From the IMG/VR virus record IMGVR_UViG_2778261505_000002: a DNA stretch of 64,000 bases. One strand, 5' to 3'. How positions within the stretch are numbered: position 1 is the first letter of the stretch; each line of letters opens with the position of its first letter. Under the pieces are notes generated by a model that saw only the letters and a program-made list of their open reading frames with translations, ran no database searches and was not told where the DNA came from. This DNA comes from a virus. Its lineage: Duplodnaviria; Heunggongvirae; Uroviricota; Caudoviricetes. This document shows positions 39,654 to 44,705 of the stretch, piece after piece. The translations under genes were made by a program, and so were the position numbers.

Positions 39654-39682
39654 CAGGCGTCCAGTTGGACGCCGTTTTATTC
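39654..39682 (+). terminator. Rho-independent terminator (GGCGTC hairpin family)
   Basis: CAGGCGTCC-AGTT-GGACGCC followed by GTTTTATT. Confidence 0.85.
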
Positions 39683-39732
39683 TCGTTATTATCACACACA
39701 AGAAAACAATTTGTTAAAAGGTTAAGTTAATT

Positions 39733-40557
39733 ATGCCCAACCACATTACAAACGAAATCCGAGTCATAGGTGGTACAAATAAACAACGCTTAGATTTCAT
39801 ACGTGCCATAACTAACAAAAAAGGTCTAATTGACTTTAATACCATTTGCAGACGTCCGAAAAGTATAGAAATGGAAGAAAACAATCATATCAGGCGCATG
39901 GCCTCTGCAATGGCGGGCGAAACAGTTTACGACCACATGTTCGGTGAATTAAAAACTCCAGAACAGGTCGAATTAGCTATGCGTGAATCAGGAATGACAC
40001 GCAAGGAAATTCGCAAAATCAAAGAGCAGGCTCTTATGCGGCTTGAGAATTATCGTCGCTATGGCTATTACTCATGGTTTGACTGGTCGCGAGCTAATTG
40101 GGGAACAAAATGGAATGCCTACAACATCGAAATGCCCGTAAAACGTATCCCTACACGTATTAAGTACGGCCATAATTTCCGCCATACACACGTTCGAGCA
40201 TATGCAAAACGAATCTATAAAAAACGTCTTGCAAGACATGCCGCAACTGGTGGTGAGTTGGTGATTCGCTTTGAAACAGCATGGTCTATGCCAAAACCAA
40301 TTTATCAGGCGATGGCTAGAAAGTTCCCGCACCTTGAGTTTGTAATACGTTATGCAGACGAAGACTTCGGCAATAACTGCGGATTCATTTTACTTCGCAA
40401 CGGCAAATGGGAATATGACTACATTGCACCGGCGAATAACGAACAATCGTCAGAAGAAAAAATCAAATGGTGCAAGTTCGCCTTTGAGTTATGTTGTCCT
40501 GGTATCACTCCACAAGAATACGGTCTAAATGAAAAATACGAATACGCCGGATATTAA
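39733..40557 (+). CDS. Hypothetical protein (Trp-rich SWFDWSRANWGTKWNA motif)
   Basis: 274-aa ORF preceded by the AAAACAATTTGTT palindrome; family not recognised. Confidence 0.45.
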   Translation: MPNHITNEIRVIGGTNKQRLDFIRAITNKKGLIDFNTICRRPKSIEMEENNHIRRMASAMAGETVYDHMFGELKTPEQVELAMRESGMTRKEIRKIKEQALMRLENYRRYGYYSWFDWSRANWGTKWNAYNIEMPVKRIPTRIKYGHNFRHTHVRAYAKRIYKKRLARHAATGGELVIRFETAWSMPKPIYQAMARKFPHLEFVIRYADEDFGNNCGFILLRNGKWEYDYIAPANNEQSSEEKIKWCKFAFELCCPGITPQEYGLNEKYEYAGY

Positions 40558-40589
40558 TGCTTTACGCACGAAGCATAGAGGTTAAGAAG

Positions 40590-41330
40590 ATGAAAAGAAA
40601 AATTGAAGAACCAAAAACGACCCTTAATAAACATGGGGAAAAAATTCAAACACACCCAGCGTTCGGTCTTGTGAAAACAAGCCGTGTTAGCACGACTGGC
40701 ATTCGTCTATTTGATTCAGAACTGGAACATAGAGACTATATTGAAATAGGCGTTTACGAGGCTGAACTATCCTTGGATAATGAACGAACCCGGCCACAAA
40801 GGAGTAGCAATAGACGGCCTTTAGTTGAAATTAGACTTAGCCAGGCACAATGGGCTGCTATGGTTAGCAGTTTTGGTGTGGGCGAAGGTGTGCCATGCAC
40901 TATTTCATATAAAACCATTGGCGACTCAATTAGAGTTCATGATATTGCCGAGCAAAAAAGTATTCGACAAAAATTCAACGATCAAATAAAGGCAGCTACG
41001 AATAGTGAGATTGATCGACTTAATCAGCAAGTATCAGAGCTAGGTGAGCTTGTGAAAAAAGGAAGAGCTGGAAAACGTGACCTTGAAGAACTATATAGAA
41101 AACTTGCATCTGCTGTAGCTAACCTTCCTGAAAATCTGTGCTTTGCTACCGAATTAATGCAGGAGCAAATGGATGAAATTGTCTCATCTGGAAAGGCGGA
41201 GATTGAGGCGTATGTTGCAGGCACTGTTATGCGTAAAGGGTTAGCAGCATTAGGCACAGAATCATGCATTAACGATGCTCCTACTGTCTCTATCACCAAA
41301 ATGGAAAGCGGTAAAGAATTACTGCCATAA
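40590..41330 (+). CDS. Hypothetical protein with central coiled coil
   Basis: Start set at ATG after GAGG RBS (track ORF begins at 40557); no motif recognised. Confidence 0.4.
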   Translation: MKRKIEEPKTTLNKHGEKIQTHPAFGLVKTSRVSTTGIRLFDSELEHRDYIEIGVYEAELSLDNERTRPQRSSNRRPLVEIRLSQAQWAAMVSSFGVGEGVPCTISYKTIGDSIRVHDIAEQKSIRQKFNDQIKAATNSEIDRLNQQVSELGELVKKGRAGKRDLEELYRKLASAVANLPENLCFATELMQEQMDEIVSSGKAEIEAYVAGTVMRKGLAALGTESCINDAPTVSITKMESGKELLP

Positions 41331-41398
41331 ATGTATCTGAGGTACTGACAATGCTTTTAATTCAACCTGGGTTCGGTTTAAAGATAAAAAAAGGACAT

Positions 41399-41740
41399 AT
41401 GTTCGGTTTCAAAGAATCGAAACGAAAAATTCTGTCCATTAGATTGCCGTTTATCACCATTCATTGGTTAAACAGAGAGTCAACCGATTATTGGTATAAA
41501 TGTGCTCTGGCCGCATTTAACGACCCTGACTGGTTTATAGAAAACCACCATGCTGTTCGTCAGGCAAAGAGAAAAGCTAATACGACATACATGAAGGCGT
41601 ATCGGAAGGCATGGAAAGAACACCGCGATCGATACCAAAAAGACATGGAGAAACTTGAATTGGAAAATATGGATCTAAGAAGGAAGCTCGGTGAAGCACG
41701 GCGAGATATTGAAGCATATAAACGTCTTGTATCGGAGTGA
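41399..41740 (+). CDS. Hypothetical basic protein with C-terminal coiled coil
   Basis: Start at ATG after AAGGA (track ORF begins at 41351). Confidence 0.35.
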   Translation: MFGFKESKRKILSIRLPFITIHWLNRESTDYWYKCALAAFNDPDWFIENHHAVRQAKRKANTTYMKAYRKAWKEHRDRYQKDMEKLELENMDLRRKLGEARRDIEAYKRLVSE

Positions 41741-41873
41741 ATATGACTTTACATTGTTTTTTCAAAGGGCATTGCTTTTCACTATACAGAAACAGAAATA
41801 ATAATGGGGCATTCTACATATGTAGTAAATGTGGGAGGACAAAATATCTTCCAGATGTCAAATTTGAAGGTCC

Positions 41874-42320
41874 TTGAATGTTTGCATTAAATGGGCAATA
41901 CAGATGATCACAACAGACTTTTCTAAATTAAGTGATTTTGAAATTAACAGACGAGTATGTGAGGCTTTAGATATGGAGGAGTATTTCTTCATACCTGATG
42001 ACGAAGCAGATTTCGATTCGGAGATCCCCACTGACGAAAGAGGTCCTGTTTGGCAGACGTCAAAAAGGGATATTAATGGCTTCCGTGCTTCAAACGGAAA
42101 TTGCTTCAATCCTTGCAACAACCCGGCGGACGCAAAGCCCATTATCGTAGAGAACAGAATTGGCATTATTCCTGCGCCAGAAAATGGATTATGGAAGGCA
42201 GCGCATAGAAAGATTGGTAACGATAATACTCCATACCATATGACTCAAAATGTAAATCCACTCCGCGCCGCCATGATTGTCTTTCTGATGATGAAAGAAA
42301 GTGAGAGTTGTACCGATTAA
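41874..42320 (+). CDS. Hypothetical protein
   Basis: 148-aa ORF; no motif recognised. Confidence 0.35.
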   Translation: MNVCIKWAIQMITTDFSKLSDFEINRRVCEALDMEEYFFIPDDEADFDSEIPTDERGPVWQTSKRDINGFRASNGNCFNPCNNPADAKPIIVENRIGIIPAPENGLWKAAHRKIGNDNTPYHMTQNVNPLRAAMIVFLMMKESESCTD

Positions 42321-42619
42321 TGAATATATACGATTTTTTTAAAAAACCTAACACATGTGTCAGAAAAGGGTATAAACCGTCAGTCATCGATTGCTGGTCG
42401 CTATCAGCAAATAATCTCAACAATGTATTCAAAATGCATTGGGAGTTTCTTTGTGAAGCGCGCGGCGTTCTCGACATGACAGTCAGAGAAGCAATTATCT
42501 GGATTCTTTGGTTTCCGGTAAGAACATTTATGACTCTGACGTACCCATTTACCTTCTGGATTTGGGGAACCGTCCTTTATTTCATATTAAAAGGAGAAGT
42601 AAAACATGGCAGCAATTAA
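42308..42619 (+). CDS. Hypothetical membrane protein
   Basis: 103 aa; Trp/Phe-rich predicted TM segments. Confidence 0.35.
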   Translation: MYRLMNIYDFFKKPNTCVRKGYKPSVIDCWSLSANNLNNVFKMHWEFLCEARGVLDMTVREAIIWILWFPVRTFMTLTYPFTFWIWGTVLYFILKGEVKHGSN

Positions 42620-43031
42620 GAAACTCTACGATGCCGCAAACGCGGCTCTGGATGTTATTGATGATGAAGTATCAAAAGGCTTTCCTGAACCTGATTGGGC
42701 GCATCAGCTACGAAACGCTATCGCCGAAATGAATCCACCAGATCCGACCACCGACGAGACAGACTGGCAGCGATTTATCCGTATGTACGCTCAGGAAATA
42801 GGTCCAACGCCAACGGCAGAGCAAGCAATGCTGCTGAAATACTTCAAAGAGGCGGGAGAGGATTTACCAATTGATGACTCAGCATATTGGTTCCACTGCG
42901 CATGGCGTAAGTATGACGTGATATTCACACAAGGCATGGGAAGCAAAGATATGGTTGTGTGGCATCTACTCCATATAGACACAGCCGTTGACAGAGTTAT
43001 TGAACAGTTTTTCCCTAACCAAGAAGATTGA
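42606..43031 (+). CDS. Hypothetical protein
   Basis: 141-aa ORF with GGAG RBS. Confidence 0.4.
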   Translation: MAAIKKLYDAANAALDVIDDEVSKGFPEPDWAHQLRNAIAEMNPPDPTTDETDWQRFIRMYAQEIGPTPTAEQAMLLKYFKEAGEDLPIDDSAYWFHCAWRKYDVIFTQGMGSKDMVVWHLLHIDTAVDRVIEQFFPNQED

Positions 43032-43086
43032 TCGCCTATTCATAACTAACAAAATAAGTAAACACTAACCACAAAAGGAAAAACAC

Positions 43087-43362
43087 ATGAGAGTTTTAGT
43101 TCGAATCGTTACCAGCACTGTCTATGACGTGTTTCCGCTTTTTATGGTCAAAGTCGATGGCCTTAACGATGAAGAAACTGACGCGCTGATCCAGCGTACT
43201 CTTGTTGAATATACAGGTCATGACGCTGATTCAGTGATGGTTGATGATGATGGTGTTTGTTGGCATAACGGCAACTGTTGGTACGTAGAAGAGACTCAAC
43301 AAATCAGTAATGAAGATGCTGAACATCTTGAGCGTATTTTAAGCATCAGCACTTTTGAGTGA
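43087..43362 (+). CDS. Hypothetical protein
   Basis: 91-aa ORF with the conserved AAAGGAAAAACACATG start context. Confidence 0.45.
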   Translation: MRVLVRIVTSTVYDVFPLFMVKVDGLNDEETDALIQRTLVEYTGHDADSVMVDDDGVCWHNGNCWYVEETQQISNEDAEHLERILSISTFE

Positions 43363-43577
43363 GTTTACAGTAAAGTTTATATAAGTTAGTATCTACCTAT
43401 CATGAAGATTTTTATTGAATACTTGTTACTCATCGTTTCAATAGCTTTTGTCATCGACTGCATTTTCACTGGTGTCATTCGTAAAGTCTTTTCCCCGGTG
43501 CACGACGTAGTCATAAACGCTTTGGCTATCGTGCTCGTATTTAATTCAGCATTTGATGTAATCAAAGAGGTGGCAGC

Positions 43578-43913
43578 ATGAAGACCATCCCATTCGCGCT
43601 GTTGTTTCTTTCTTCGATCGTTGTGGCCGACACCACTGTTTATCAGTGTGAAATGTCTGTAGCCGACGTTAAGAATGGCACTCTTACCGACGTCATAAAA
43701 GCACCATATGGAGCGATGGTCGTAGACAGCGGCGACCAGTTCTATGTTGTGCGTGACGATCGAGTGTTGTCATCCCCATATCTCACAAATCGTAATGGCA
43801 AATTAACCGGCGTCGGAGAAGACCACTTCGTATACAACAAATACAAGGGCTTCTATGGCGTTCACGCTTCTCAGCAAAGCTACCTTTTCGATGACTGCAA
43901 GGAGGTTGGGTAA
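43578..43913 (+). CDS. Hypothetical secreted protein
   Basis: N-terminal signal peptide (MKTIPFALLFLSSIVVA); 111 aa. Confidence 0.45.
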   Translation: MKTIPFALLFLSSIVVADTTVYQCEMSVADVKNGTLTDVIKAPYGAMVVDSGDQFYVVRDDRVLSSPYLTNRNGKLTGVGEDHFVYNKYKGFYGVHASQQSYLFDDCKEVG

Positions 43914-44125
43914 TGGCATTAACACTGGCAGGTCTGGAAATCGAGAAAACAAGCGGCTACTGGCGTGCTAAGGGTTTCAAGCAGCCTGGCATTCTTGAGC
44001 GTCTGGAACGTGAAGATGGGTATATCGTCCACCAGCGGCGTGAATGGCGTATGTACGATCCAGAAACAGGAAAACTGACTACAAAAGCCGGAACACTTTG
44101 GGGTCTGTTAAAGAAAATACACTAA
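43913..44125 (+). CDS. Hypothetical small protein
   Basis: 70-aa ORF whose start overlaps the upstream stop. Confidence 0.35.
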   Translation: MALTLAGLEIEKTSGYWRAKGFKQPGILERLEREDGYIVHQRREWRMYDPETGKLTTKAGTLWGLLKKIH

Positions 44126-44172
44126 ATGCAAACTGACTGCGGAACGTGCCGCAGTCATATTTCATAGTCGTC

Positions 44173-44705
44173 ACCGCTGACAGCATACACAATCAACTAC
44201 CGCTGATAGCATATCGAGAGTCTATCTCACCGCTCACAGCATACATTACTCGATTTTTTACCGCTGACAGCATACTTAAGAAATTGCATGAATAATGTGT
44301 CCCGGTATGGGTATAACCAGAACAAAATTACCGCTGGCAGCATACGAATGTCTGACATATACCATTAATTACCGCTGATAGCATATCCAAACAAAAATTC
44401 CTCAATAAAACACCGCTGACAGCATACATTCTATCAGAGAGTAGCAGGCAATAAATGCCTTTCACTACAAGCAATCAGCGCAATAGCAATAGAATGTTAG
44501 TGAGCGCAAACCTATATGGAATGCACTCTTCGAGGTTAGTAACCACTGGGGAGGTATGACAGAGCATTGAGTGGTGATAGATGATTTACCGCTCACAGCA
44601 TACGTTCATCTCACTATACCGCTGGTAGCATATCTTTAACCGTTCACAGCATACTTTTCAGAAAAATAGCCGCTGATAGCATACATTTCACCGCTGACAG
44701 CATAT
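44173..44705. repeat. Iteron array downstream of repA (incA-like), about 12 copies of a 16-bp repeat
   Basis: ACCGCTGACAGCATAC and close variants at about 44173, 44199, 44228, 44259, 44329, 44370, 44411, 44587, 44618, 44639, 44668, 44690; variable spacing; ends at the rep stop codon. Confidence 0.85.

Follow-up and report, generated by a model that had tools for sequence, protein, structure and literature searches.

Lambdoid phages carry non-essential, mosaic early genes in their nin and early-left (pL) regions (ninA-I, ninX, ral and the ea genes), and early lytic operons are not transcribed in the lambdoid lysogen. For P1, the operators of the C1 repressor are asymmetric, and multiple copies are dispersed in front of early operons, that of ban among them.

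Here, we analysed a block of small genes in a window of 64,000 nucleotides, by which we mean the whole stretch of DNA under study. Judged by its DNA matches, the window comes from an E. coli SSU5-type phage-plasmid: plasmids of E. coli, E. albertii and S. sonnei (107-126 kb) match it at 97-99% DNA identity, as do the SSU5-like phages CMS-2020a, Cyrano and PhiR41_1. Positions 39656-44157 of the window are a single co-directional gene array between two terminators (Table 1). The reading that we favour, and to which we would give an even chance, is that this motif-headed array holds exchangeable phage early-region genes in a slot, followed by backbone genes, and has a role in entry into or takeover of the cell.

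Borders and gene content of the array

Co-directional ORFs on the + strand fill positions 39733-44125. On the left the array is bordered by a hairpin that scores in the terminator scan as the intrinsic terminator of the SPFH lipoprotein gene lying upstream. A RepA replicon with 12 iterons (iteron array 44171-44705) follows directly on the right, in agreement with the position described in an earlier note on this DNA.

Nine genes had been counted in that note. All nine can be regarded as real genes under purifying selection, because eight are annotated in near-identical (~99%) public plasmid records and dN/dS is 0.03-0.11 for block genes wherever dS is unsaturated; for the ninth, of 59 aa, annotation comes only from phage relatives (Cyrano, for example). 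The total is probably eleven, however, as ORFs of 46 aa (g4) and about 99 aa (g6) fill gaps and are likely to be two further genes, both without annotation in public records. As a gene, g4 is weakly supported, with weak matches to phrog_7696 (E 0.007) and NCBIfam Cys_rich_47, and it is found only in p4_0.2-type plasmids. The C-terminal half of g6 is aromatic and hydrophobic, and the ORF occupies the 285-nt gap between ninX (g5) and g7.

Contrary to the earlier view that no gene here carries an assignable motif, three pass their Pfam cut-offs, namely g1 (DUF1281_C/Api92-like, 58.4 bits against 22.8), g5 (NinX, 60.9 against 22.6) and g7 (DUF7238, 129.9 against 27); that view fails at the level of family but holds at the level of function. 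Several of its product descriptions agree with our own. Three of the proteins are basic (pI 9.3-9.9), the small membrane protein is the hydrophobic g9, the 246-aa coiled-coil protein g2 shows a long helical hairpin (residues 125-216) in its AF2 model, and the 111-aa g10 is probably exported, its signal-peptide-like N-terminus being, by hydropathy only, a hydrophobic segment at residues 3-22 that ends VVA|D. The 274-aa g1 had been described as Trp-rich; the quoted motif SWFDWSRANWGTKWNA is present, although at 2.6% Trp the richness is modest.

Table 1. Features of the array and its borders, with positions in the window
Feature	Position	Strand	Evidence or remark
GC-rich hairpin GGCGTCCAGTTGGACGCC + T-run	39656..39673	+	terminator scan, fold -17.2 kcal/mol, kept in relatives
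Putative regulatory motif ATCACACACAAGAAAACAATTTGTT with palindrome AAACAAnTTGTT(T)	39688..39716	+	5 copies in window, conserved in relatives
g1, 274 aa, basic, Api92/DUF1281_C-like	39733..40557	+	Pfam PF18406, AF2 fold, homologues
g2, 246 aa, beta domain + helical hairpin	40590..41330	+	phrog_6452, alignment, AF2
g3, 129 aa, basic, helical heptad-like C-terminus	41351..41740	+	nin-region homology, phrog_1511
g4, putative 46-aa Cys-rich protein (HC..HC...C..C)	41737..41877	+	ORF, overlapping stop/start codons
g5, 138 aa, NinX (DUF2591) family	41904..42320	+	Pfam PF10765
g6, putative, ~99 aa	42320..42619	+	phrog_2638, E 5.6e-17
g7, 141 aa, acidic, DUF7238	42606..43031	+	Pfam PF23885
g8, 91 aa, acidic, backbone	43087..43362	+	phrog_2209
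g9, 59 aa, very hydrophobic, ~two predicted spans	43402..43581	+	GRAVY 1.56
g10, 111 aa, signal-peptide-like N-terminus, two Cys	43578..43913	+	hydropathy, phrog_2077
g11, 70 aa, basic, P1 Cra homologue	43913..44125	+	tblastn, phrog_804
Terminator-like hairpin, bidirectional	44134..44157	.	right border, just before RepA iterons

The motif at the head of the array

The g1 start codon lies 17 nt downstream of a motif of about 25 nt whose five copies in the window compare with 0.3-0.6 expected by chance. All five are on the + strand, are closely followed by a ribosome-binding site and ATG, and start 33-52 nt before the ATG; a GC-rich hairpin precedes most of them. The operons that they head are the slot array and those of ParA-like, DnaB-like helicase/primase, CobT-like and NrdB genes. 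At the slot head the motif is kept in E. coli and Klebsiella relatives, whichever gene comes first, and occurs as a sequence variant in Salmonella.

We consider the motif a probable operator or promoter element. A convincing sigma-70 promoter was looked for around it and not found; the motif could alternatively serve another factor as promoter or act at the RNA level. An operator-like palindrome upstream of the block had been noted previously. The obvious palindrome there (39656-39673) scores as the SPFH terminator, which is most simply what had been seen, whereas the smaller AAACAAnTTGTTT at 39704-39716, downstream of that terminator, is operator-like. If it were an operator bound by a dimeric regulator of the phage-plasmid, the array would share its switch with genes for replication and nucleotide metabolism, rather than being a defence locus expressed constitutively in the lysogen. 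The motif also precedes the ParA-like gene, however, and that gene would be expected to be active when the element is a plasmid, so that the regulon may not be confined to lytic or early expression.

Variable slot, backbone and candidate roles

Gene presence and absence was tabulated across nine relatives and combined with annotation tables of relatives. By this comparison, the block is a swappable early-gene slot on the left and a conserved small-gene cluster on the right. The slot (39733-42619) directly follows the fixed motif element, differs in content among relatives, and here contains g1 to g6. Of about 218 E. coli plasmid matches from complete E. coli genomes, just 16 cover at least 80% of the block. 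The slot is empty in most relatives, and its 2.9 kb are missing from phages Cyrano and PhiR41_1, leaving g7 as the leading gene of the array in empty-slot relatives; it holds NinX only in SSU5, three genes in p09EL50 and S. sonnei plasmids, and a different gene set in Klebsiella relatives. The right part (43087-44125, g8-g11) is family backbone, kept in the SSU5 and Klebsiella relatives examined and matched at 60-80% identity in Yersinia, Enterobacter and Citrobacter plasmids. Intermediate between the two, g7 is backbone in the E. coli and Salmonella lineages and absent from the Klebsiella relatives examined. The label of accessory region given in the earlier note therefore suits the left 2.9 kb, which is patchy among relatives, but not the conserved right 1.0-1.5 kb. 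In being conserved, this backbone part comes close to the core replication or morphogenesis homologues which that note had said would speak against its proposal.

Identities on the backbone side are 96-97% in Cyrano and PhiR41_1 and 75% in SSU5 for g7, 74% in SSU5 and 41% in Klebsiella for g8 (dN/dS 0.10), 68% in SSU5 for g9 (annotated there and in Cyrano) and 94% in SSU5 for g11 (dN/dS 0.03), while g10 matches phrog_2077 over its full length (dN/dS 0.08 against SSU5). Since g8-g11 occur in every SSU5-type relative examined, including Klebsiella, always directly beside the iterons and convergent with repA, g7-g11, and perhaps the whole array, might provide core plasmid functions tied to the RepA/iteron replicon, for example by controlling copy number, resolving dimers or supplying accessory factors for replication. 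The head motif in front of ParA-like and DnaB-like genes would fit this, as would the homology of g11 to P1 Cra (Cre-associated), whose gene sits next to cre: the two proteins are of similar size, and tblastn gives 43.5% identity to P1 and P7 cra over the 62 residues 8-69 (E 1e-4). Against this, g11 adjoins the RepA iterons with no cre-like gene beside it, DNA-binding, replication and recombinase domains were not detected, the predictions for g9 and g10 point to the membrane or to export, and most relatives do without the left 2.9 kb. Furthermore, RepA of Cyrano and SSU5 is only ~50% identical to RepA here, whereas g7-g11 of Cyrano are 96-100% identical; block and replicon allele therefore do not vary together, placing a module border at the 44134-44157 hairpin. 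A core plasmid role thus seems quite unlikely to us. For g9 and g10, exclusion or envelope roles may fit as well as any other.

Contrary to its earlier description as unassignable, g1 is placed both by its Pfam score and by fold. Its AF2 model (pLDDT 91) has two ferredoxin-like domains and matches a single PDB fold, that of Api92 (2IJR; E 3.3e-5, probability 1.00, TM-score 0.36); a PDB match at the sequence level was sought, even by profile, and none was found. It differs from Api92/DUF1281 in that the N-terminal DUF1281 model gives no match. The subfamily to which g1 belongs is distinct, starting with MPNH and having a helical insert specific to the lineage, at roughly residues 50-110 and 135-175. 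The protein has 841 homologues. Nearly all relatives keep the N-terminal Met-Pro-Asn, WGTKWNAY, TAWS and YADED, with an exact MPN start in 116 of 120; M1, P2, N3, TKWN, TAW and A-EDx5G are invariant columns and D209 is nearly invariant. The protein would probably be an enzyme or bind nucleic acid, with an essential processed N-terminus (Pro2). Closer relatives lie in the early-left operon of lambdoid prophages; relatives are found directly after the N gene (Pantoea prophage), near xis/int (Dickeya prophage) and in the early region of Pseudomonas phage phi2. Its sole tie to the F-plasmid leading region is the database name "YubB ferredoxin-like domain", and tblastn against plasmids returned only 46 records, 42 of them non-mobilizable.

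Two further slot genes have relatives in the lambdoid nin region. The homologue of g3 is the ORF between NinE and NinF (~82% nucleotide identity to HK630_055, VT1-Sakai and O157 prophages; dN/dS 0.08-0.09), and g5 shares ~88% with ninX of phage Sf101, which adjoins NinE. DNA identity of 82-88% to lambdoid/P22-like nin-region genes indicates that both have been exchanged with such phages. The neighbouring g2 belongs to a large unnamed phage family (4114 representatives at E<=1e-3), whose phage members sit in arrays of small unannotated genes. Its N-terminal beta domain, which conserves THPAFG...LS.AQWA..VSS.G.G.GVPCT, precedes the helical hairpin, and no specific fold match to its AF2 model (pLDDT 82) was found in the PDB. 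Although g1 and g2 are adjacent in E. coli plasmids and some Salmonella plasmids, there are prophages with g1 but no g2 and Klebsiella phage-plasmids with g2 but no g1, and in pSTM_Phi two other genes lie between the pair. They are not obligate partners, and so no multi-gene system can be claimed.

Variation of the left part between close relatives, as in defence islands, together with the g1-g2 adjacency, could point to a defence or superinfection-exclusion island from which the resident plasmid prophage protects its host, via g9 and g10 or the g1-g2 pair. The membrane protein g9 and the predicted signal-peptide-like g10 resemble some exclusion proteins, and defence systems are present at other loci of SSU5-group phage-plasmids (bioRxiv 10.1101/2025.09.12.675607). 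We nevertheless judge such an island unlikely. PADLOC returned no meaningful match for the block, only coiled-coil noise (LmuB, ~13 bits), and profile searches found no nuclease, ATPase, TIR, Sir2 or toxin domains in it; a Rad anti-retron homologue, searched for throughout the window, is absent. In addition, g9 and g10 are conserved rather than variable, g1 and g2 also occur separately, and the head motif is common to helicase and RNR operons. Where relatives of g1, g3 and g5 can be placed, their setting is either an early lytic operon (the nin region or a position after N) that is silent in the lambdoid lysogen or a leading-region-like plasmid context, and not a defence island expressed in the lysogen. 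The defence role suggested previously thus finds no footing, and the block appears to be a fairly ordinary accessory region with no recognisable defence system.

Based on these early, nin and leading-region-like contexts, the reading that we prefer is that the genes work at entry or during early development, possibly in counter-defence, an assignment drawn from genomic context alone. The slot genes would be phage early-region accessory genes that act at entry into, or takeover of, the cell, most likely by counter-defence or host modulation. Their patchy distribution, with most relatives lacking them, and the recent DNA-level identity to prophage genes would also suit selfish or neutral hitch-hikers, picked up from lambdoid prophages through homologous or illegitimate exchange and of no use to the phage-plasmid. 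This we hold to be very improbable, given the strong purifying selection on g1 and g3 (dN/dS 0.08-0.11), the retention of g1 with g2 in the E. coli and Salmonella lineages (~65% amino-acid identity), the extreme conservation of the g1 motifs across phyla, and the insertion of slot genes always in expressed orientation behind the conserved motif.

Comparison with described systems

Leading-region anti-defence islands and polyvalent proteins resemble the array through g1, whose relatives include one that neighbours the genes for SSB and an LPD11-domain protein on a Bacteroides plasmid and one fused to the polyvalent-protein domain LPD28; a DUF1281 protein also lies beside an antirestriction gene on pPATH. 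Unlike those islands, the block has no validated anti-defence gene (Ard, Psi, Rad etc.), and the element is non-conjugative.

The head motif recalls the C1-repressor operator network of P1, where a short motif likewise recurs at the heads of dispersed operons of a plasmid prophage; a DnaB-like helicase operon is included here, as the DnaB analogue ban is in P1. The motif sequence is unrelated, however, and palindromic where the P1 operators are not, and the comparison is an analogy only.

Closest in gene content are the lambdoid nin and early-left genes. The present genes differ in residing in an SSU5-group plasmid prophage beside an iteron replicon, behind an element-specific palindromic motif and outside N/Q antitermination, and in lacking the recombination genes NinB and NinG. 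What the two share is direct homology of g3 and g5 at the DNA level, g1 relatives right after N or near xis/int, and an array of small, dispensable and individually exchangeable genes set among replication and recombination genes.

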